From Octopus vulgaris (taxonomy: Eukaryota), in contig OX597815.1 of the NCBI GenBank assembly GCA_951406725.2, forward strand, positions 150,784,001 through 150,848,000: DNA of 64,000 nucleotides, read 5' to 3'. The notes beneath the pieces are model-generated. The model was not told the origin of the DNA and ran no database searches. It worked only from the letters and a program-made list of their open reading frames with translations. Below are positions 2,741 to 61,238 of this stretch, piece after piece. Numbering within the stretch: position 1 is the first letter of the stretch; every line of letters begins with the position of its first letter. A program made the position numbers and the translations under genes.

Positions 2741-3626
2741 AGTTTCGGTACGATAAGACGCAATAATATTCAGTGTCGTAGTTAATCAGTCATCCAAACT
2801 TGGGCATATCAAAAGGTCTTGAGGAAAAAAGAAGTAACACCAATAATTTAGTCCAAGAATAGAATCCCAAATTATCTCTCTCAAGATTTCTAAAGGAATC
2901 AAGTTTTAATTCTGATTTAGCTTCTCTGTGATCGCTACTTTTGTAAAGAGTCAATTCAACACTAAAATTTATTATATGCAAGCATTTATCACCAGACGTT
3001 TATCTCAGTAGATTAGAAAGACATTTCAACGTCATCGTTCTTATCTCACACAGATGCTATGAACAGACTTAATTGCTTAATTTCGCCTAATTAACAATTA
3101 GACACATCCATTAAAGACAGGATTGATTAGGACTGAGAAATACTGATAGTGACTGGAAATATTCAACGGAATTGGAAATCGCAGTAAAACGTTTAACTAT
3201 AAGGTTATAGTAAGAGACTGAAAGTATTTGAAATGACTGATAACGAATCAAAGAGAATAGAATTGACAGAATTTGTATGTGCCTATACAACTCTCTTTGC
3301 AGCACATATTATCAGGTAGAGAGAAGTCTAGTGCTTGCTTTCTCTAATAGCACAGTGGCATTAACGCACTGGGACTTCTACCAAGACAGACCTCAGTTTT
3401 GTAGGTGGAATTTGGTAGAGAGAACAATTCAAAAGCTTGTTGTTTATTTGTATGCAAGTACATGTGTGGGTGTGAGTGTGTATGTGTGAGTGTGTGTATG
3501 CGTGCATATATGTGCATATGTATATATATAAATATGCACATATATGCACGCACACACACACACACACACGCACACATACACACAAACACAAACACACACA
3601 TATATTTGCATACATATAAACATCAA

Positions 3627-4854: not shown

Positions 4855-4967
4855 ATATATGCAGAAATATATGCGACCAACTTTAGAACCTTTTGCAGAA
4901 ACAAAAACTCGTCCAACTACCAAAATCGTTAGACATGTGCTTTGGTCCAAGAATTTAACAAACATTT

Positions 4968-5150
4968 AACTGGTCATCACCACTCCATTTAGTGAAAAAG
5001 AAATCTGGTGATTATAGACCTACTGGAAACTATAGACGACTCAACGCTATTACCATTCCAGATAAGTATCCTATACCAAATATCCAGGATTTTGCAACTT
5101 CTCTGCATGGTTGCACTATATTCCCAAAAATAGATTTCATACAAGCATAC
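4968..5150 (+). pseudogene. Ty3/Gypsy reverse transcriptase fragment
   Basis: WSSPLHLVKKKSGDYRPTGNYRRLNAITIPDKYPIPNIQDF...IFPKIDFIQAY, the classic Gypsy RT N-terminal motifs; truncated at (TATG)n. Confidence 0.9.
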
Positions 5151-5164
5151 CTAGCTACCGTTAC

Positions 5165-5195
<31 letters not shown>

Positions 5196-6051
5196 TGTAT
5201 GTATGTATGTATGTATGTATGTATGTATGTATGTATGTATGTACGCATGTATGTATATATGCATGCATGTATGTATGCATACATTCAGATTTGTATTTTT
5301 TGCTTTATGTATGTATTCTCATGCATATAGTTGCCTATCTAGACATGCTCTGTGTTTGTATGTATGCATTTATGTAAGTATGTGTGTATGTATGAAGGAC
5401 CCCTACATTTCGTTAGAACTTTCTTCTAGTGGAAGGTAGACTCCCGTATAAATAAACCTAAGTATAGTTGGTTTCTCATCGTCTCAGCATTTGTTGTGCC
5501 GCTGATTGTGTTAAAGGCTTGGATCAGTGTTGTGTACCTTTATCCACTCAAAACCAGTTCCCTGACCTACTGTTTAGAAAATGCTCTTACTCCATTGCAA
5601 GTTACTTTCTACTATTTATTTATTTATACTCACGAACATCACCAATGAGATAACCATAACAGCTGAGACAAGTTGGAGGTGTTTGCTTGTGAGAAGATGC
5701 CGTAGACGGAACCGTTTGCAAGGCATCGGCTAATTTAGTCCCCGCTGTCCCGCAGAGGCGAAGAGCATAGACTTAAGGGCGATATGTTGAAACACTTGTG
5801 ATAGCTTTTGTCACCATCAAGAGCCATCTGGAGATATTAAAATGGTCACACAAATTGACAAGTTTAATTAATTCGACATGGTTTCTAAATTTTTATGTAT
5901 GTCCAATACTCTACGAAGACAGAGGAGTTGCAGAGACGTAAACTACGTTTTTGTCTCTTATTAATAAAAATAGGGGCAAAAACTGCCTCGTATTTTCCAG
6001 TTCTTGAACCGCAGGTCGAATGTAAATATATGATATATGAAATTTAAAATG

Positions 6052-10919: not shown

Positions 10920-11748
10920 CTTTTTATCACAAGTTTTGTTGGAGCACCTGGAGTATTGCATGCGTAGCGGGCTTACTTACTAACTGCAGGCTACGGTGCC
11001 ATACTATTCGTTCTTTTCAGCTGTCTAATACTTTCCTGATTATTCTGGCCGTGCCAAGGAGGCAAATCTTTTGTACCTGTTCTACTGGGCACTCTGTTCC
11101 AATTTCTTTTATATTCCACTTGATACCTTCTCATACTGTTCCCAAGGACCCAGCAATAATTGGCATTATTTTCCCCTTCTTCATTTTCCATAGCCGGGAT
11201 ATGAGATTTGTATCTGTCTATCTTTTCACCTTCCTTCTTCGCTATTCGTGTGTCAAAGGGGCATGCAACGTCAACTGTATAGCATATATGGTGCACCTTG
11301 TCCACTACCACTAGATCCGGTCTGTTATGCTCTAGCACCTGATCTGTTTGGATCGGGAAATCCCAGGGGATTATCATAGTCTCCGATTTCGCCACTCTCT
11401 GCGTCTGTGCTCATACAATGTCTTGTTTCTCTCTAACCCTTACTGCTTTCACAGTTTCCAATGTAGCACTTTCGTTACCTGGTCGTGTCGCCACAGCTTG
11501 TAATGGTTTCGGGCAAGTCTAGAACATTCGGTCGTGATATGGACAATGTTTCATCCACTCTATTGCAGATGCGGCACAGCGGAGACACTTGCTCATTCTT
11601 AATTGACTGTGTAGTCCCTTCTTTCGTAATCCTTCTTCACGTCCTTTTTGTACATCTTCCTTTGTTTTTCTTTTTTTTCTACTTTCAATACTCCCTCGAT
11701 CCTAGCTGTCATTAACATGGTTTCCTTACTGTGGGCTAGGTATCTCAT
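10920..11748 (-). mobile_element. R4/Dong-like LINE 3' portion (zinc knuckle plus RLE), third subfamily, frameshifted
   Basis: SPLCRICNRVDET...RHDQV..LHWKL, then WDFPIQTDQVLEHNRPDLVVVDK...VDVACPFD. Confidence 0.85.
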
Positions 11749-11833: not shown

Positions 11834-12339
11834 TTCACTAGTTATATTTTTATAGTGTGCTTTCACTTCATTACCGAACACAGCTCTGTGTGCCTTGGAT
11901 ACGTGCTGTGTTTTGTTTTGATGCTCTGATGGTTACTGTATTGAAAGTGTTTTGCGTAGGATGTGGGCAGTGCCCAGGAAGCCAATTCTCTGTATGTTAT
12001 ATGTGTTTGTAAGTCCTGGTGTCTTGGTTATGTATTTGTCTGAATATTTTTTAATCATGCCTAATGCACCTACTATGATAGGAATTGTTTCTGTTTTTAG
12101 ATTCCACATTCGAGTTACCTCTATTTCCAGGTCTTTGTATTTTGAAAGTTTCTCCATTTCTTTTAGAGTCACGTTGTCATCTTCTGGTATTGATACATCA
12201 ATTAGAAAGCATTTTGCTTCTTCATGATCTCTGACAACTATATCTGGTTTGTTGGCTTTAATTTCTCTATCTGTGTGTATTGGCATATCCCAGAGAATGG
12301 TTGCTTCCTCGTTTTCTGTGACCTTTTCTGGTGTGTGCC

Positions 12340-12340
<1 letters not shown>
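11834..12340 (-). mobile_element. R4/Dong-like LINE 3' end with an intact RLE domain frame
   Basis: ORF 11933-12286: MPIHTDREIKANKPDIVVRD...FLIDVSIPEDDN..KEMEKLSKYKDL; PD..D..K RLE signature. Confidence 0.9.
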
Positions 12341-12423
<83 letters not shown>

Positions 12424-12447
12424 TATTATTATTATTACTATTATTAC

Positions 12448-12497
<50 letters not shown>

Positions 12498-12643
12498 CTT
12501 CTTTCTTAAAATTTTCTTCTATTTCTCGCAGAGTGTTTTCCGTACACCTAGGGCAGAGAAGCTCATTGTATGCATTCCCAGATTACACACACAAATTCAC
12601 ATTATTATTAATTAGTAGTACTAGTAGTAGTAGTAGTAGTAGC

Positions 12644-20182: not shown

Positions 20183-20510
20183 ATAAAGTGATGGTTTGTT
20201 GCCAACTTAATGTGCCAGTCCTAGGAAAGGGAAGAATGCTACTGCTATTTAGCCCTAGGAAACATCGTTTCCAGTTGGCTTCGTGACACAAGCGTTCCGT
20301 GTCTTTTCTCCTCTGTTTGAAAGCTTAAGGACACAGAACGCTAGTGAAAAGCAGTCAACTGGAAACGATGTTTCCTGGGGCTAAATAGTAGTAGCATTCT
20401 TCCCTTTCCTAGGACTACCACATTAACTTGGCAACAAACCATCACTTTATCGTGCTGCTATTGTATAAGTTTCTCTGGGAGATTTAGAAATGCAATATTT
20501 CTAATTTTGT
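20183..20510. mobile_element. Fold-back PLE-like relic (arms about 20183-20305 and 20328-20450, plus tail)
   Basis: About 120 bp inverted arms; the tail and arm are homologous to minus-strand 24325-24500, and the arm to 13241-13334. Confidence 0.7.
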
Positions 20511-20939
20511 TTTTGTATATAAATTGATATAAAAACAATCAACTGTGTGTGTGTTTGATTTTATATGCATGTATCTTGTGTGTATAGTTAAATGTACGAC
20601 TACTTCACATAACATGATCATTTTCTAATTAATTCATAGAGCATTCTATACTACTTGGTCGTGTTACTAATTATAATATTCATATTATTTGTTGTGGGAA
20701 ATTAAGCTAAACACAAGTAGAAATTATTAGTTCCATTCTGAATATTATAATATATCTAAATATTAGATCTCTATAAAAGAATGCAATGAAGTGTACCCAG
20801 ATGATCCACTGCTCTTGGACATTTAAATGAGCTTGGAACTACCATTGTTGTATTCTGAATAATTGCAATAGTGAAACGTATGTAGGAACTAATAATTTAC
20901 ATTTGTGCTTATCTTAATTTTCCAAATATATATATATAT

Positions 20940-21340: not shown

Positions 21341-21353
21341 ATATATTTATGTA

Positions 21354-21668
21354 ATCGTCACTAAAGTAACTAAAGGTGCAAGTCAACACCAGTATTGCTA
21401 GAAATAAGACTCAAAACAACTCTTAGCTGATGAGGGAGACACTGATGAGGATTACTTTTATCGAAAATCACCGGTGATCTGGCGCCGTCGCTTGCTGTAG
21501 GGCTGTTATCTCCCTTCTCAGTCAATAAATAGTGCTTTGCTCGTGGCTAAGTGTTGTTGTGATTCATATTTCTAGCAATGCTGGCGCTGACTTACACTCT
21601 TAATCACTTTTAGTGACGATTGTACTTGTGTCTTTTGGTTTTAAATTGCGACTAGCCATTTTACTAAT
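21354..21668 (+). mobile_element. Inverted-arm PLE-like relic with an internal degenerate HHR (21435-21486)
   Basis: Arms 21354-21427 and 21546-21620; CTGATGA-g-gat...atc-GAAA-a-tcaccggtga-TC; tail runs into (TA)n. Confidence 0.65.
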
Positions 21669-24649: not shown

Positions 24650-25615
24650 GAATAGATCAGTATCAACAGAATATATTATCTGAGACAGATCAGAGGAGAT
24701 TTAATAACCAAATAAATAGTAGATAACGGAGTACTAAAGATGGGAAAACTAATGCAGAGGAGGCTAGAAAGTTCTGAAGTAATTTTTGGAATAAACCACT
24801 CAATTATAATGGAAATGATATATATTTAAATAAAATGAGGAAATAAGTTGTGAGTGAGAAGCAGCCAGATCTAAGTTTTAAGGGAAATGCTGAATAGGAA
24901 GGGCCCAGGACTAGATTTAGTTGAAGGATAGTGGCTAAAGAAATTCAGTAGTTTACATGGGAGGATTGCCTTAATGGAGGAATAATACCAGATTGAATGA
25001 CTAGAGGGAGGACAATACTCATTATGAAGGATAAGAGCAAGGGTAATACAGCTATCAACTATAGACCAATTACTTGCTTACTATTAGTATGGAAGCTGTT
25101 AACAGGAATGCTTTCAGAAAGCATTTACAAGCTCCTTGACAACCAGAATTTACTACCAGAAAAACAGAAAGGTTGCAGGAAGAAGGCTAGAGGAATGCAT
25201 GATCTACTATATATAGACAAAGCAGTTCTAAATGAAGTAAAAGCTAGAAAGAAAAATTTAACAATAGCATGGATGGATTATGAGAAAGCCTATGACATGA
25301 TCCCACACTCGTGGATAAATGAATAATTAAGTATATTCAGTATAGCAGACAACGTAAGAGATTTAATTAGTTTTAGCATGAAAAAATGGAAAGATGACAC
25401 ACTATTAGGGAAAGTTAATACCAAAAGGGGAATTTTCCAGGGGTCTCGTTGTCTCCTTTCATATTTGTCTTATGTTTGATCCCCATCAGTATAGTATTAA
25501 GGAAGGCAAAAGCAGGGTATCAATTCAGAACCATTTGCTCTACATGAATGAACTGAAGCTTTTTGGTAAAAATGAAAAATAGATAGATTCCTTAATACAA
25601 ACTGTAAGACTCTCA
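24650..25615 (+). mobile_element. R4/Dong-like LINE reverse transcriptase fragment (disrupted)
   Basis: NYRPITCLLLVWKLLTG...QKGC...WMDYEKAYDMIPHSWI; downstream GIFQG.LSP and NHLLYM remnants. Confidence 0.9.
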
Positions 25616-25879: not shown

Positions 25880-26824
25880 ATGGTACGATTATAATTGTAA
25901 TGGTACGATTATAATTGTAACGGCAATGATGGCCGTCTCCCCACGAGCCAATCAAAGCTAAAAAATGATAACATTATCGTAGCACCAAAATGTTTTTGGA
26001 AACTAAAAGGAAAACTAAATCAGTATACCAAATCGCTTGTCCTATGGTTAATCTGGAAGCGCGTCCCCCAGGGAAGAGCCAGCCTGGGATCGAAAGTCAT
26101 CAACTGGCACAAACTCTTCTCCGAATACGGACATGGATGGTCACTTGAACGGGAAATCCCCCAACTCGAGCCCTCCAAGTTCACCACCACAACCACCACA
26201 GAAAGAAAAATGTAAACGGAACAAATGGACCCGAGAAGAGTATAAAGAAGTAATATACGCTTATTACTATGCATTAGGTAGGCCATCTCAAGAGAGACAC
26301 ACCGCAAACTCTTACAGTATATAGAGAACACGGAATCAAGACAGTAGGCCCTATTTGGACGAGAACAAATTAGCAAATGTGAGGAGGGATATCCTTAGAA
26401 ATAACAGACTCACAGACAGTGAAATAAGCGCGATCAAGCACGCAACGGAAAATGACATAAATATAAGACACAAAGGAAGTGAAGAATCAGATGAACAGTA
26501 TAGCCCGCCACGAGGCTTAATTGAAAGACTGCCATCTGACCAAAGTACGCAAAGGCCTGAAGATACAAGAAATTCTATTGTACCTGTTAAAGATAGCCAG
26601 GAAAACGAAAAAACAACAGTAACTGAAGATCTCGCATTTGCTGAAGAACACAGAGAGTCTATAGCAGAAATGAGGCAGAAAATCCTGAATACGCTTGAAG
26701 TTGTAAGACATACAAGTATGAATGATAGAGAACCACTTCATAAACTCTCAAATACAAACCAAAATAAAAAACAAATCCAAATTGGCAACTATGTAACAAA
26801 TGAAATAATACGAGAATTAAAACA

Positions 26825-26825
<1 letters not shown>
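25880..26825 (+). mobile_element. 5' end / N-terminus of an R4/Dong-like LINE, 3'-truncated
   Basis: RNKWTREEYKEVIYAYY...DENKLANVRRDILRNNRLTDSEI, typical of the R4-clade N-terminus; starts after (TAA)n; one in-frame stop at 26322-26324. Confidence 0.7.
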
Positions 26826-27040
<215 letters not shown>

Positions 27041-35939: not shown

Positions 35940-36131
35940 AGCACACAGACATGCACAAACACACACATACATAATATATTTATTTAATTATTCTTATTTT
36001 ATAATTATTATATGTGAATTTAAATCGAAATATATTAGTTTGGTTACTTTGTGAATTAGATTGTAAAATTTTTTAGCATAGGTAAAGTTTTTTTATTATA
36101 TTTAGTACTATTGAATTTGATAATAATAATG

Positions 36132-41956: not shown

Positions 41957-42015
<59 letters not shown>

Positions 42016-42228
42016 GTGAAATAGAAAGATGAATAATCTTGTAGTAGATTAATCAAAAGTTTAACCGATACCTTAGTAGCAAAAATCACAGCAGTAAACA
42101 GCACGGTTGGAGGTACAACCATATGGTGTTGCAACCGTGCGTTGGTGCGGATAATTGAAATTAAAACATTATTGGTGAATTGAAGAAATGGAGCTGAACG
42201 CAGATTGAACAGAAATCGTTTTATTTCA

Positions 42229-42308
42229 TTCTACACGTGTTTCGAAAGGCACAAATGACCAAATTCCGATTGAATAATGGGACCATATTGTGTCTTTCTC
42301 TTCAGGAA
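42229..42308 (-). ncRNA. Minimal type I hammerhead ribozyme in the PLE pLTR
   Basis: UUC-CUGAAGA-GAAAGACACAA...UUGUGCCUUUC-GAAA-C(ACGU)G-UA-GAA, followed by AAUAAA. Confidence 0.9.
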
Positions 42309-42902
42309 GAAAATAGGAAATCCGTTGGAAAAACAAAAACAGAACAGAGGCGGAGCAAAAACAAATCGAACTATGCTCCTAAGAGCCCATGGCGAAACTG
42401 TTTATCAGTGTATGTTGAGAACCGGTGGCTGAAGAATTTAACGGGTCAGGCATCGGTCAATCATGTGGGTGAGGGTGTGTAGGTGTTCTTTGTGACCGAG
42501 AATAAAGTTCTGACTATTTAAGGAATATTGGATGTTTTATAAGGGGCGAGAAAAAATCTACTTAGAGACGTGTGTGTGTGTATACTGTTCTATATATGTG
42601 TGTGTTGGCGTAGGGGTAGAAAACATTTTTTGTGTACGTGTGTGCGTTTGATCGTTCGGCTGTCAGTGGCTACTGCCGTCAGAACCGTTGGGCGGCAGAA
42701 AAAAAATATATATATATTATGTTTTATGTGTGTGTGTGTTCATCTAAGCCTGCCTTGTCAAGGAAACCCCCCGCTGTGAAAAAACCAAGCCCCGTTTGTC
42801 TTACAGGAGTAATTCCCCTTGCAGTGGTTAATCGTAGATATCTTAAAGGCTATTTCAGAATTTGTTACCAAGGGCTATGGGTGCCGGTATTATTTATAAA
42901 CG

Positions 42903-44060
42903 CTATTTAAAAGCCAGATAAGTGTAGCGCCGCCAATGGGGGCATCGAAAAGCCGACTGTAAAAGCCCATTTACCATCCGGCCTCTGGCAAACAAAATAT
43001 GGAAGAGTTCGGAGACACAAAGGTTGCACTGCCTTCTGCCCCTATCAAATGGGAGGGCCACCGACAAAATTGACCATTCCAGCCTGTAGCTTAAGTTCGT
43101 ATCCTTCAGTCGCCATATTAGCTTACTGAGTCCCGTGGTCTGGCGCTTGTTCATGTCCCGAAAAGTTGCGTAATGGTTGGAGACACGCAAAGACAATCTT
43201 GAGGATGAGGCCCCTACATAAGTGAAGACATCTGAGTCCGTGTAAACCTTGCATTTGTAGACGGCGTTTTTGATCTTGGAGTTCGCCGACGTGAATCTTA
43301 TTCTGCTAGGATTAGTTTCTGAAATTAGAACTGCGTTCCTGTCACTATATTCGTTCCGAGACCTGCAGCCGCTTACTACTCTATTTTCCACTACGTCACT
43401 ATTAACTATAGGAATAACCCCTGATTCTCCACTATCTATCAGAGTGCTGTCATTGCTACTGCCCGTGGTGCTGCTATTGCGGGAAATGATGCTGGGGATG
43501 CTATTGGGGCTCTCTACCCTACTCCCATTGTTACCGTCAACCACAACACCCCTATTTATAACTATACCCCTAGTGGGTACTCCCTGGCTGGAGCTGAGAT
43601 TATGTGTCACTGTACTGGCTCTCATATCATTATTACTACTATAACTATTCCTACTGAGCATTAAACCGGGAGCGGAAGAGGCTGTGCCTCCGGAAAAAGG
43701 TGATAGGGTCTTAGTAAGTAGCCTATTATTATGGGAGGCGATTATCTGGGCGAGGTTTTTAGTGTTGGAGAAAGCTATCCTAACTTTATGCGAGTTAACC
43801 GTGGAGTAATATTTGGAATTTCTGGGGAAGTTATTGGCGATGGCTTGTCTAAACATGAGGGGGAGGTTAGTTCTAATCTGCTTACCAAAGGGGATTACAA
43901 ACCATATATGCTTATTCCTATCAGTGTGATGGGTCGGGACGCCAGCTCTCGCGTTCGGGTGGGTGATTCTCGGATGAACAACGGGTCTTGGGTTAGTGTA
44001 AGACCTCCCGGACCGATAATTATCCTTGTTCGCTAAATTAAATGCGGGAGCGACTACCCC
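42903..44060 (-). CDS. PLE ORF C-terminal part: RT thumb/linker plus GIY-YIG endonuclease (Naiad-like)
   Basis: Frame stays open from the inversion junction past the listed start at 43856; HIWFVIPFGK..TN, SHNNRLL, AVYKC...YVG...R..NH...WSIL...CNLC.SE...N...CPH. Confidence 0.9.
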   Translation of the reverse strand, partial: GVVAPAFNLANKDNYRSGRSYTNPRPVVHPRITHPNARAGVPTHHTDRNKHIWFVIPFGKQIRTNLPLMFRQAIANNFPRNSKYYSTVNSHKVRIAFSNTKNLAQIIASHNNRLLTKTLSPFSGGTASSAPGLMLSRNSYSSNNDMRASTVTHNLSSSQGVPTRGIVINRGVVVDGNNGSRVESPNSIPSIISRNSSTTGSSNDSTLIDSGESGVIPIVNSDVVENRVVSGCRSRNEYSDRNAVLISETNPSRIRFTSANSKIKNAVYKCKVYTDSDVFTYVGASSSRLSLRVSNHYATFRDMNKRQTTGLSKLIWRLKDTNLSYRLEWSILSVALPFDRGRRQCNLCVSELFHILFARGRMVNGLLQSAFRCPHWRRYTYLAFK

Positions 44061-44066
44061 GGGGTA

Positions 44067-44381
44067 GTAGGGGCCTCATCCTCAAGATTGTCTTTGCGTG
44101 TCTCCAACCATTACGCAACTTTTCGGGACATGAACAAGCGCCAGACCACGGGACTCAGTAAGCTAATATGGCGACTGAAGGATACGAACTTAAGCTACAG
44201 GCTGGAATGGTCAATTTTGTCGGTGGCCCTCCCATTTGATAGGGGCAGAAGGCAGTGCAACCTTTGTGTCTCCGAACTCTTCCATATTTTGTTTGCCAGA
44301 GGCCGGATGGTAAATGGGCTTTTACAGTCGGCTTTTCGATGCCCCCATTGGCGGCGCTACACTTATCTGGCTTTTAAATAG
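44067..44381 (+). pseudogene. Inverted duplicate of the GIY-YIG C-terminal ~100 codons
   Basis: Translation identical to the end of the minus-strand ORF. Confidence 0.9.
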
Positions 44382-44974
44382 CGTTTATAAATAATACCGG
44401 CACCCATAGCCCTTGGTAACAAATTCTGAAATAGCCTTTAAGATATCTACGATTAGCCACTGCAAGGGGAATTACTCCTGTAAGACAAACGGGGCTTGGT
44501 TTTTTCACAGCGGGGGGTTTCCTTGACAAGGCAGGCTTAGATGAACACACACACACATAAAACATAATATATATATTTTTTTTTCTGCCACCCAACGGTT
44601 CTGACGGCAGTAGCCACTGACAGCCGAACGATCAAACGCACACACGTACACAAAAAATGTTTTCTACCCCTACGCCAACACACACATATATAGAACAGTA
44701 TACACACACACACGTCTCTAAGTAGATTTTTTCTCGCCCCTTATAAAACATCCAATATTCCTTAAATAGTCAGAACTTTATTCTCGGTCACAAAGAACAC
44801 CTACACACCCTCACCCACATGATTTACCGATGCCTGACCCGTTAAATTCTTCAGCCACCGGTTCTCAACATACACTGATAAACAGTTTCGCCATGGGCTC
44901 TTAGGAGCATAGTTCGATTTGTTTTTGCTCCGCCTCTGTTCTGTTTTTGTTTTTCCAACGGATTTCCTATTTTC

Positions 44975-45054
44975 TTCCTGAAGAGAAAGACACAATATGG
45001 TCCCATTATTCAATCGGAATTTGGTAATTTGTGCCTTTCGAAACACGTGTAGAA
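44975..45054 (+). ncRNA. Minimal type I hammerhead ribozyme (inverted arm copy)
   Basis: Same motif as 42229-42308 on the opposite strand. Confidence 0.9.
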
Positions 45055-45112
45055 TGAAATAAAACGATTTCTGTTCAATCTGCGTTCAGCTCCATTTCTT
45101 CAATTCACCAAT

Positions 45113-45199
<87 letters not shown>

Positions 45200-53731: not shown

Positions 53732-53775
<44 letters not shown>

Positions 53776-53779
<4 letters not shown>

Positions 53780-54119
53780 GTAAATATAATATCTGACAAT
53801 TGTTCGGTAGCCATGATAAAACTCCGAGTTTCGGATGTCTGGGCGAAATCCACACCGGCATCTCTTCAGTTATGGGGCCATCGAAAAAAATGCTATGAAA
53901 ATGACCGTTAAAACAAAGGGGAATTAACGGTCATTTTCATAGTATTTTTCTTTTCGATGGCCCCATAACTGAAGAGATGCCAGCGTGGGTTTCCGCTCCG
54001 ACATCCGAAACTCGGAGTTATATCATGGCTACCGAAGAATTGTCACATATATTTACAGATAAATTCCTCTATTTACATACTATCGAGGTCTCTTTCATTC
54101 TCTTGTTGTCTTGTCATTT
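53776..54119 (+). mobile_element. Fold-back PLE-like mini-element with an HHR in both arms, inserted in the (TA)n of a family 2 SINE
   Basis: Arms 53776-53911 and 53924-54060, tail to 54119; AUAA-CUGAAGA-GAUG...CAUC-c-GAAA-CUCGGAG-UU-UUAU; SINE halves at 53525-53730 and 54143-54308. Confidence 0.85.
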
Positions 54120-56354: not shown

Positions 56355-56361
<7 letters not shown>

Positions 56362-56760
56362 TATAAAGGATCGTGGGTAAGGCCGAAGCAATGCGAAGTA
56401 AATGCATCGTAAATCACAACCAAAGAAATATATGAATTAATGTAGACTTACCTTGTATTCAATATTTCGGGGTTATGACCCCATTTTCAAGAAATTAATG
56501 AATTTTCCCGATGTGCGTGTGCGTGAGCGTGTGTGGAATGGACATGGTCACACACACGCATATCGGTAATATTCATTAATTTTCTTGAAAATGGGGTCAT
56601 AACCCCGAAATATTGAATACTAGGCAAGTCTACATTAATTCATATATTTGTTTTCGCGTGATTTACCTTGTATTTACTTCGCATTGTTTTAGCCTTGCCC
56701 ACAATCTTTTGTACAATATATTCTACACAATACTTTATAGTAATTATTCCATTATGATAT
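56355..56760 (+). mobile_element. Fold-back PLE-like mini-element with a U3-A8 hammerhead variant in both arms
   Basis: Arms about 56355-56533 and 56550-56720 plus tail; UUC-UUGAAAA-U-GGGGU(CAUA)ACCCC-GAAA-UA-UU-GAA at 56582-56617 (+) and 56458-56493 (-). Confidence 0.8.
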
Positions 56761-56764
56761 AATA

Positions 56765-56929
<165 letters not shown>

Positions 56930-57000: not shown

Positions 57001-57133
57001 ACAATAATAAATCTCTGAACGAGATATAAACAGTAACTGCTCGACAACGTAAGGGGGATCAGCCATCTGAATGTGGCTAGGGACCCACCACCCCGCCCTG
57101 TCCCTAGCCACATTCAGATAGCTGATCCCCCTT

Positions 57134-57136
<3 letters not shown>
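57001..57136 (-). mobile_element. Very short fold-back insert in (TA)n (36 bp arms plus 48 bp tail)
   Basis: Arms 57049-57084 and 57100-57135 with one mismatch. Confidence 0.7.
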
Positions 57137-57190
<54 letters not shown>

Positions 57191-57285
57191 AAGTGTCTTG
57201 CTCAAGAACACAACACGCAGCCCGGTCCGGGATTCGAGGTCACAACCTCACGATCGTAAGCTCGACGCTCTAACCACTGAGCCAT

Positions 57286-57342
57286 GCGCGCGCGGCGCGC
57301 GCGCGCGCGCGCGCGCGCGCGCGCGCGCGCGCGCGCGCGCGC

Positions 57343-57347: not shown

Positions 57348-58261
<914 letters not shown>

Positions 58262-59907: not shown

Positions 59908-60180
59908 CGGAGATGTACTTGCATAGCATGTGACTTAATCTGAGATCGTGTGCTGAAGTATAAACAATTCCAGCGTGGAAGTTGTTTATAAGCCATTTAA
60001 AAACACACGAAAACAGCTGGATTCACTTCAACATTTAACTTTAATTTGCCAAAATATTTTCGTCACCTTGAGACCTCGACCTCATCACTGACAGAAATTT
60101 TGTCAGTGATGAAGTCACGGTCTCAAAGCGACGAAAATATTTTAGCAAAAATAGTTTTAAATATTGAAGTAAATCCACCT
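59908..60180 (-). mobile_element. Fold-back PLE-like mini-element with a G3 hammerhead-like variant
   Basis: Arms about 60019-60095 and 60098-60177, tail 59908-60018; UGUCA-GUGAUGA-G-GUC...GAC-GAAA-AUAU-UU-UGGCA. Confidence 0.7.
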
Positions 60181-60199
60181 TTCACGGTGCAATTGTACA

Positions 60200-60246
<47 letters not shown>

Positions 60247-60248
<2 letters not shown>

Positions 60249-61232
60249 AAAATGAGAAAATGGAGAAATATATCTAAATCAATCATCAACTATCAGATAA
60301 TACCCAATCAATACTTTATTAAACCACTACACAATAGCAATGATATTTTACATTAATATAGTACAAATATAACAAGACATAGAAATAGAAATAGAAATAG
60401 ATTTACATTGTAGCTGACAGCTGTTTCGGCCGTGAAGACAGGTATGTCCCATTTATCCTATTAGCAGGTGTAAATTAGACATTAACAAGAATATCTCACG
60501 GCCTCTTCAGAGATTTTAATGCAAGTATGAGTACAAATCCTAAAAAAATTACATATAAATATAAATATGTGTGCATACACACTCATATTCTTACATATAT
60601 ATATATATATACACACACATTAATACAATATAAACAATATAGATCAATATACATCAACAAACACAATAATGTTCCATATTGAACTCCACAGTTCCTCAAC
60701 CAACATCAAGAAACCACAACAGATACACTCACACTCAAAGCAGGCATATATATTAAACAGTCCAATATATTATTAAAATGTGTCATTTCACAAAAAGTCA
60801 ATAAAATTAATATTACCACGACGGTACCATCCAATGCAAGCGGATATCCGCAGGTTAAATGGGACATACCTGTCTTCACGGCCGAAACAGCTGTCAGCTA
60901 CAATGTAAATGTATTTCTATTTCTATTTCTATGTCTTGTTATATTTGTACTATATTAATGTATAATATCATTGCTATTGTGTAGTGGTTTAATAAAGTAT
61001 TGATTGGGTATTATCTGATAGTTGATGATTGATTTAGATATATTTCTCCATTTTCTCATTTTGTATTATTAATTTACGGTAAAAATAATTTTACCTTTGC
61101 CCACATAATACAGTAGATGAATTAATTGCATCGCAATTTTTAACATTTATGTATTAGCTTTGTTGGGGACTTCTCTAGCAGTATATTGGATATATGTTAT
61201 CCCATGGAGGGTTGAATTTACAACCCCTATCT

Positions 61233-61238
<6 letters not shown>
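60247..61238. mobile_element. PLE-like element with ~210 bp inverted arms and a tail, in (TA)n
   Basis: Arms 60247-60455 and 60856-61064; tail 61065-61238. Confidence 0.85.
60413..60513 (-). ncRNA. Minimal type I hammerhead ribozyme
   Basis: CU-CUGAAGA-GGCCGUGAG...UUCACGGCC-GAAA-C(AGCU)G-UC-AG. Confidence 0.85.

Follow-up and report, generated by a model that had tools for sequence, protein, structure and literature searches.

Penelope-like elements (PLEs) have been described as inserting with an inverted, 5'-truncated copy of themselves and a tail at one end (PMC8557442; PMC3846280), and PMC8557442 counts the way in which this layout arises among the open questions. This question is raised again by a 3.1-kb element at 42014–45121 of a 64,000-nucleotide stretch of Octopus vulgaris DNA (assembly GCA_951406725.2, contig OX597815.1, positions 150,784,001 to 150,848,000 of the forward strand; referred to as the window). 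The copies of its family display a coding parent, two discrete end sites, strictly mixed pairing of these sites, alleles shared by the two arms of one insertion, microhomology or templated bases at the inner joints and short target duplications where the flanks allow. We consider it the more probable explanation that the element is a 5'-truncated, head-to-head Hydra-type insertion in (TA)n, for which both cut target strands served as primers on the same RNA, one of them at the end of the tail and the other at a fixed site that lies about 150 nt upstream. The layout itself is known: added here are the counts of strict one-of-each pairing, the finding that either arm can be the longer one and the allele sharing.

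Layout of the element and its parent unit

The element contains two inverted arms (42162–43217 and 44067–45121), which are 99.5% identical over 1,056 alignment columns with four substitutions and one single-base indel, and a 148-bp tail (42014–42161, minus strand, delimited by self-comparison and family copies) whose mirror copy is absent. The left arm, on the minus strand, comprises the 3' end of an open reading frame (ORF) and the 3' region of the long, tail-bearing copy, and the tail ends at the distal (tail-bearing) site; the right arm, on the plus strand, is the inverted, tail-less copy and ends at the proximal site with ...AATGTTTTA, where the family sequence goes on with ATTTCAA. The ORF (42903–44062, minus strand) is 5'-truncated and retains a remnant of the reverse transcriptase (RT) thumb, an N/S-rich linker and a GIY-YIG-type endonuclease (EN). 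Both outer ends lie in (TA)n, with the left part of this target at 41960–42013 and the right part at 45122–45183, as read from the sequence.

The genome (2.8 Gb) was searched with the middle of the element, which gave 569 candidates, 40 of which were scored (99–100% identity), and the 10-kb stretches around the scored matches were used to reconstruct the parent: a unit of 3,625 bp with an 895-residue ORF encoding RT and EN. In tandem copies the tail is the 5' leader of the following unit, ending 44 bp before the ATG. As the window copy is 99.4% identical to its nearest family copies, it is by sequence identity a young insertion, and the window ORF matches residues 515–895 of the intact family protein at 377/381 positions (99%). 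The first-pass annotation of this DNA, which had described a young Penelope insertion with two arms of about 1.05 kb, few differences between them and one tail of about 150 bp, was thus correct in these respects, with the tail on the left only. In its layout the window element is ordinary, given that an inverted copy and a one-sided tail have already been published for PLEs.

End sites and arm pairing

Two sets of insertions were scored. The ORF-selected set holds 38 insertions including that of the window, one of which spans two stretches and was scored by hand; the position-ordered set, chosen against length bias, holds the 62 insertions found through the first 100 of 1,209 exact matches of a 28-nt pattern, with three ends taken from overlapping loci. 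Five insertions are common to both. Tabulation of the arm endpoints, as the first-pass annotation had suggested, revealed two discrete sites: the tail end accounts for 88 of 170 terminal ends, and all but one of the others (81) fall at the tail-less site, located about 150–160 nt upstream of the tail end. The idea that the tail-less arm stops at any internal TA or ATAT hence gives way to a site that is fixed for the family, the tail-less ends grading into (TA)n at several TA or AT steps (family positions 3464, 3466 and 3472). Single-armed copies also end at either site. A similar short motif precedes both sites, and these are predicted to be largely unpaired in one copy; in the window the motif, TTCAC..ATAAT-like, is seen at 42014–42030 and 45105–45121.

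In the ORF-selected set, 30 insertions are two-armed, all with one tailed and one tail-less arm, seven are single-armed and one is a local fold-back, and the position-ordered set contains 48 one-of-each pairs, one pair with an end at neither site and 13 single-armed copies. When the sets are united, all two-armed copies with ends at the family's two sites are mixed (75/75), with no tailed/tailed and no tail-less/tail-less pair amongst them. Were each strand to choose its site independently, about half of the pairs would be of the same type; none is seen, and the simplest reading is that the choice of the two sites is coupled. Which arm reaches further into the element is not fixed: in the 48 position-ordered pairs this is the tail-less arm in 26, the tailed arm in 15 and neither in seven, and the tailed arm stops inside the tail in nine. 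Copies totalling 1 kb or less, which resemble miniature inverted-repeat transposable elements (MITEs), make up 27 of these 48.

One candidate for a tail-less/tail-less pair (L336) was rejected, as it is a fold-back that takes in flanking DNA. In L336 and L339 the right arm plus about 400 bp of flank has been duplicated by fold-back, the two occurrences lying 54 kb apart.

Template, joints and target duplications

The alleles of the two arms were compared at 35 polymorphic sites in 54 insertions, with the expectation drawn from other insertions. Within one insertion the arms were discordant for subfamily alleles in only 12 of 512 comparisons, against 175 expected; 8 of the 12 fall in regions of ambiguous microsatellite alignment and three real ones are found in L052. 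Several subfamilies coexist, yet the arms almost never mix.

Amongst 75 inner joints, 45 are direct and 30 carry extra bases. Microhomology of at least 2 nt is present in 29 of the 45 direct joints, against 16% in simulation; some extra bases are apparent only through mismatch with the reference, and several are clearly templated repeats. Most inner joints are not palindromic. In the window, sequence and family comparison place the joint at 44053–44068: family homology ends at 44062, four extra bases (44063–44066) complete a 16-bp palindrome and the inverted arm begins at 44067, which makes a short snap-back before joining likely. Target duplications of 11–19 nt were found at 4 of 14 informative flanks of this family and duplications of 11–14 nt at 6 of 21 checked insertions of a second family, represented in the window by the short hairpin at 57001 (see below).

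Interpretation of the paired arms

Both arms run antisense inward from the flanks, and therefore the 3' end of each flank was extended on a sense template. In the explanation that we favour, both target strands would be cut in a staggered manner and each would prime reverse transcription on one element RNA, at two fixed sites at which two RT active sites, perhaps those of a dimer, would dock. Where the arms overlap, the inner complementary DNA (cDNA) would be displaced by the outer RT, and the two cDNA 3' ends would finally be joined by host end joining; the nine tailed arms that stop inside the tail are as a blocked outer cDNA would give. MITE-looking hairpins would be short products of the same reaction, the machinery of which would also serve non-coding hammerhead repeats. 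A second priming event from the (TA)n target had been proposed in the first-pass annotation: two primings from the target remain the best reading, whereas the tail-less arm need be neither the second nor the shorter one, being longer in 26 of 48 pairs. Twin priming is familiar from L1, where a single RNA is copied from both ends of the target and the resulting inversion is joined by microhomology. There the position of the inner site is variable and the arms have almost no overlap, whilst here the site is fixed and the overlap reaches up to 3 kb.

Several points weigh against this explanation. All of its steps are deduced from finished insertions. Allele sharing would look alike for one RNA and for two RNAs transcribed from a single source locus, and gene conversion between the arms at a later time would also produce it. 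Ten of the 14 informative flanks have no target duplication by the test used. Single-armed insertions amount to about a fifth (13/62) and require a second route. In the work on the anole PLE, the two strands showed no difference in start site, and pairing within one molecule lay outside its tests (PMC11167929). Finally, L052 with its three discordant sites and L277, in which two families are joined and both arms are tailed, speak for occasional two-template events. In L277 (about 1290–1740) a tailed arm of the 3.1-kb family stands head-to-head with a tailed arm of the unrelated family of the 59908 hairpin; possible origins are a single event that drew on two RNAs and a deletion that fused neighbours afterwards.

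The alternative that survives best, although we regard it as unlikely, is double priming on two RNA molecules within an asymmetric protein complex, with the arms alike because one source locus dominates a cell. Arm overlaps of up to 3 kb (L066) would then need no strand displacement, and the arms of two families in L277 as well as the discordant sites of L052 would be accommodated. Against this, 75 mixed pairs out of 75 demand an asymmetry that is built in, coexisting subfamilies would be expected to mix more often than they do, and the 9 of 48 tailed arms that end within the tail are not what two templates would suggest.

An improbable alternative is that there is one start site, or a hairpin intermediate, and that the endonuclease then trims one tail at resolution, as suggested under the wording 'EN-mediated resolution' in PMC8557442. 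Trimming also predicts a one-sided tail, and the tail-less site is AT-rich; yet direct initiation at each of the two boundaries of the tail is documented for the anole enzyme (PMC11167929), single-armed copies too end at either site, and the grading of the tail-less ends into (TA)n is as priming through a few base pairs would give.

That the inverted arm arose when the first cDNA folded back or primed its own copying, an idea akin to the self-priming model of PMC3846280, appears very unlikely to us. It would explain allele sharing, palindromes do exist at some joints, including the 16-bp one of the window, and L336 is a true fold-back with flanking DNA. The majority of joints are without a palindrome, however, and in 26 of 48 pairs the tail is found only in the short arm and the extra ORF sequence only in the long arm: therefore neither arm was copied from the other, and fold-back is contradicted for these 26.

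The eight short hairpins of the window

The same asymmetry had been reported at eight other sites of the window (20183, 21354, 53776, 56355, 57001, 57409, 59908 and 60247), and at all eight we indeed find that the inverted arms (84–100% alike) leave an overhang at just one side. Their families differ from that of the 3.1-kb element, whose DNA they do not resemble: comparison of the element with the window returned only self-matches and one 38-bp match at 35951. It is scarcely credible that these hairpins represent MITEs, or DNA transposons of the fold-back type that end in inverted repeats, since the hairpin look, the TA flanks and the short duplications at some sites are outweighed by an end asymmetry that is fixed by family, by inner breakpoints that differ in every copy and by arms that lead into RT/GIY-YIG ORFs (three families) or tandem hammerhead units (three others), which refutes it for six of the eight (the exceptions being 56355 and 59908). 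The families examined lack the marks of MITEs, namely a uniform size and terminal inverted repeats that are symmetric and fixed; their ends sit at two family-specific sites, the inner breakpoints vary and hammerhead-like cores lie inside. The hairpins are thus not MITEs, and yet not all of them are truncated autonomous PLEs as the first-pass annotation had it: three have coding PLE parents, three derive from non-coding hammerhead units and two are without a parent amongst 20 loci each.

Coding parents were found for three two-armed stubs. The element at 57409–57806 (arms 57409–57441 and 57706–57738, 57-bp tail on the right) belongs to a very young Neptune-type PLE, in which RT and a CCHH GIY-YIG endonuclease lie upstream in 100% identical copies and all five resolved pairs are mixed. 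It is flanked by 100% identical, inverted 103-bp pieces of a transfer RNA-like repeat (57187–57289 and 57922–58024), the left one of which ends in a long (CG)n run. The element at 60247–61238 (arms 60247–60459 and 60852–61064, 174-bp tail on the right) stems from a third Hydra-type PLE with an ORF beyond a 3' region of about 2.7 kb, and its three pairs are all mixed; the end sites of this family share TCTCATTTT (60247–60260 and 61225–61238). The element at 53775–54118 (arms 53775–53911 and 53924–54061, plus strand) represents another Hydra-type PLE, which in L184 runs into a Hydra-type endonuclease with CxCX5C.

Three families are built on short tandem units with hammerhead cores recognised by inspection. 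Two old two-armed insertions on the plus strand, both with the tail on the right, lie at 20183–20512 (arms 20183–20306 and 20327–20450) and at 21353–21668 (arms 21353–21427 and 21546–21621), the former not within (TA)n. The two-armed stub at 57001–57138 (arms 57046–57084 and 57100–57138, minus strand, 49-bp tail on the left) belongs to a young family with a 359-bp unit. Tandem periods are 327–361 bp for 57001, 355–356 bp for 20183 (355-bp unit) and 327–347 bp for 21354; tandem units were found in 2/20 loci for 20183 and in 4/20 for 21354, and 57001 arrays reach up to eight units. The longest ATG-initiated ORFs of the 57001, 20183 and 21354 units have 30, 31 and 17 codons. All three units are short and non-coding, repeat in tandem and carry a type I hammerhead core, and they fit non-LTR (long terminal repeat) retrozymes. 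For the 57001 family, 96 of the first 100 of 783 pattern matches, corresponding to 54 insertions, were scored: 25 are single-armed and 29 two-armed, with 23 mixed pairs, six pairs with an end at neither site and no same-type pair. Arms that end about 65–75 nt past the tail end were seen in L351, L374 and L379 and perhaps mark a third site, and head-to-head multimers of the 359-bp unit occur in L317–L322 and L346 (2+6 and 3+2 pattern matches).

The remaining two-armed stubs, at 56357–56770 (arms 56357–56532 and 56542–56718, plus strand) and 59908–60195 (arms 60015–60096 and 60098–60180, minus strand, tail on the left), carry hammerhead-like cores of the U3–A8 and G3–C8 kind, respectively, whose changes are compensated in 14 of 20 loci for the former and in 16 of 20 for the latter; neither a coding parent nor a short unit was found for either amongst these loci. 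The right arm of 59908 is decayed, and its overhang appears to be 107 bp in length against about 58 bp for the family tail.

The parent protein and its clade

The family is an EN-containing PLE, with a single ORF for a telomerase-like RT and a GIY-YIG domain according to sequence motifs and a structure model. The model of the 895-residue protein (mean predicted local distance difference test score of 79.6) finds its best fold matches in telomerase RTs, the endonuclease displays the GIY-YIG core by motif and alignment, CCHH is absent and the C-terminal CxxC and CxH are present. RW(L) and SDKT align with homologues and, by eye, with the published Hydra alignment. Neither the truncated nor the full-length protein had a match in Pfam, and a sequence search of the PDB returned no relative. 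Of the 37 ORF-selected insertions apart from that of the window, eight retain an intact ORF.

Marks of the Hydra clade are RWK, DKT, GIY-YIG without CCHH, C-terminal CxxC and CxH, a CxCX5C linker and insertion into (TA)n (PMC8557442). The family resembles this clade, for example Hydra-1_Obim, in its single ORF with RT followed by GIY-YIG, RW/DKT, CxxC/CxH and lack of CCHH, and further features in common with the Hydra-1_Obim type are insertion into (TA)n, an inverted copy that is truncated at its 5' end, a tail on one side and, as a candidate in this family, a hammerhead-like motif (PMC8557442). It differs in having a unit of 3.6 kb rather than under 3 kb, a tail of 148 bp rather than 30–40 bp, and a predicted disordered N/S-rich stretch in place of the CxCX5C linker (PMC8557442). 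This linker is found in none of 45 family reading frames, whilst 74 of 77 homologues with a complete C-terminus keep it. Because the linker is missing and the other Hydra marks are present, we provisionally file the family as a derived lineage of Hydra type, the published alignment having been compared by eye, and the window element is on the same sequence grounds assigned to a 5'-truncated copy of a young Hydra-type PLE.

Family copies show 5' truncation, partial tandems, an inverted copy and a one-sided tail, and 162 of 170 terminal ends adjoin (TA)4 or more. Retention of (TA)n targeting in spite of linker loss argues against the linker being required for this bias. The intact protein at L063:5020–7707 has no CxCX5C linker and two predicted disordered inserts, yet the family inserts nearly only into (TA)n. 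A single-armed tandem array of about 3.5 units is present in L115–L116.

The hammerhead-like motif and other features of the window

Each arm of the 3.1-kb element holds one copy of a type I hammerhead-like motif, identified by inspection and motif scan at 44969–45060 (plus strand) and mirrored at 42223–42314 (minus strand): core CTGAAGA at 44978–44984, a long stem II that is seen in the fold, GAAAC at 45040–45044 and a short palindromic stem III, with the cut predicted after 45051. Rfam gave no hammerhead match in an arm of the 3.1-kb element or in the 57001 unit, and on five further loci one sub-threshold HH9 match, which lies off the core read by inspection and was not used; a scan of the whole window yielded only sub-threshold microsatellite matches among the best 150 of 285 listed. 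Folding energies of the motifs were not better than those of shuffled sequences. The 5' ends of arms cluster in the core, with 12 at family positions 3382–3402 (window 45030–45052) against about 4.5 expected and five near the predicted cut against about one. RT stalling fits this pile-up as well as cleavage does, and we do not claim cleavage because many of the clustered ends sit just upstream of the predicted cut. In L081 both arms end in the hammerhead core.

It follows from the sequence that any RNA transcribed across the element would form a duplex of about 1.05 kb. A host exon was sought in 121 selected frames and none was found, which speaks neither for nor against read-through, and comparison of the tail sequence with public runs gave no usable editing signal. 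The private joint of the window was not seen in the contigs of four public runs, which, as contigs drop rare variants, is uninformative on polymorphism. Other retroelement fragments lie at 4959–5330, 10991–11410, 11933–12505, 24997–25323 and 26325–26980, two with Pfam RT matches and the others resembling long interspersed nuclear elements by eye.

Relation to known systems and implications

A close precedent for the arrangement is the inverted pseudo-LTR (pLTR) with optional tail of Pen2a_Av, which is similarly head-to-head, with a tail on one arm, palindromes at some joints, a short duplication and N-rich ORF inserts; self-priming on an antisense template is invoked there, in contrast to an obligatory pair in 75 copies with either arm longer here (PMC3846280). 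For Poseidon, an Anolis PLE, cutting and extension of both target strands from two start sites that bracket the tail have been demonstrated in vitro (PMC11167929). The use of both strands, the AT-rich target and a predicted dimer are further parallels to the family as interpreted here; Poseidon is a member of another clade, and the accessible part of that paper draws no link from the two sites to head-to-head insertions (PMC11167929). PLEs have been proposed as the movers of animal retrozymes (PMC7229834, PMC7761336) and, by phylogeny, as their source (bioRxiv 10.64898/2026.07.22.740005). The 20183, 21354 and 57001 families are like metazoan non-LTR retrozymes in their non-coding tandem units of 330–360 bp and type I hammerhead core (PMC7229834). 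These studies argue from co-occurrence and phylogeny (PMC7229834; 10.64898/2026.07.22.740005), unlike the insertion footprint used here, and the main text of the preprint 10.64898/2026.07.22.740005, as far as accessible, contains no mention of tail, priming, palindrome or head-to-head. In the literature within reach we found no paper that states strict tailed/tail-less pairing or a shared template; older reviews were beyond reach, and a prior description is possible.

Strict pairing, the either-arm-longer pattern and allele sharing provide three numbers that any model of PLE integration must meet. With strict pairing and a shared template, the open question of mechanism gains in sharpness and can be tested in the in vitro system that already exists, for which this young family with intact ORFs offers a usable Hydra-type substrate. 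For annotation, the consequence is that many hairpins of the genome which tools would call MITEs are retroelement stubs. Beyond this family, it may just as well prove right as wrong that PLEs in general integrate by obligatory twin priming: one RNA would offer two RT sites at motif-marked positions that bracket the tail, one for each strand, and strand displacement would produce overlaps of kilobases. Such a rule would span Hydra, Neptune and retrozyme families, tie animal retrozymes to PLE enzymes, imply that PLEs steadily supply long perfect hairpins to a hairpin-rich genome and leave (TA)n targeting in this family to operate without the cysteine linker.

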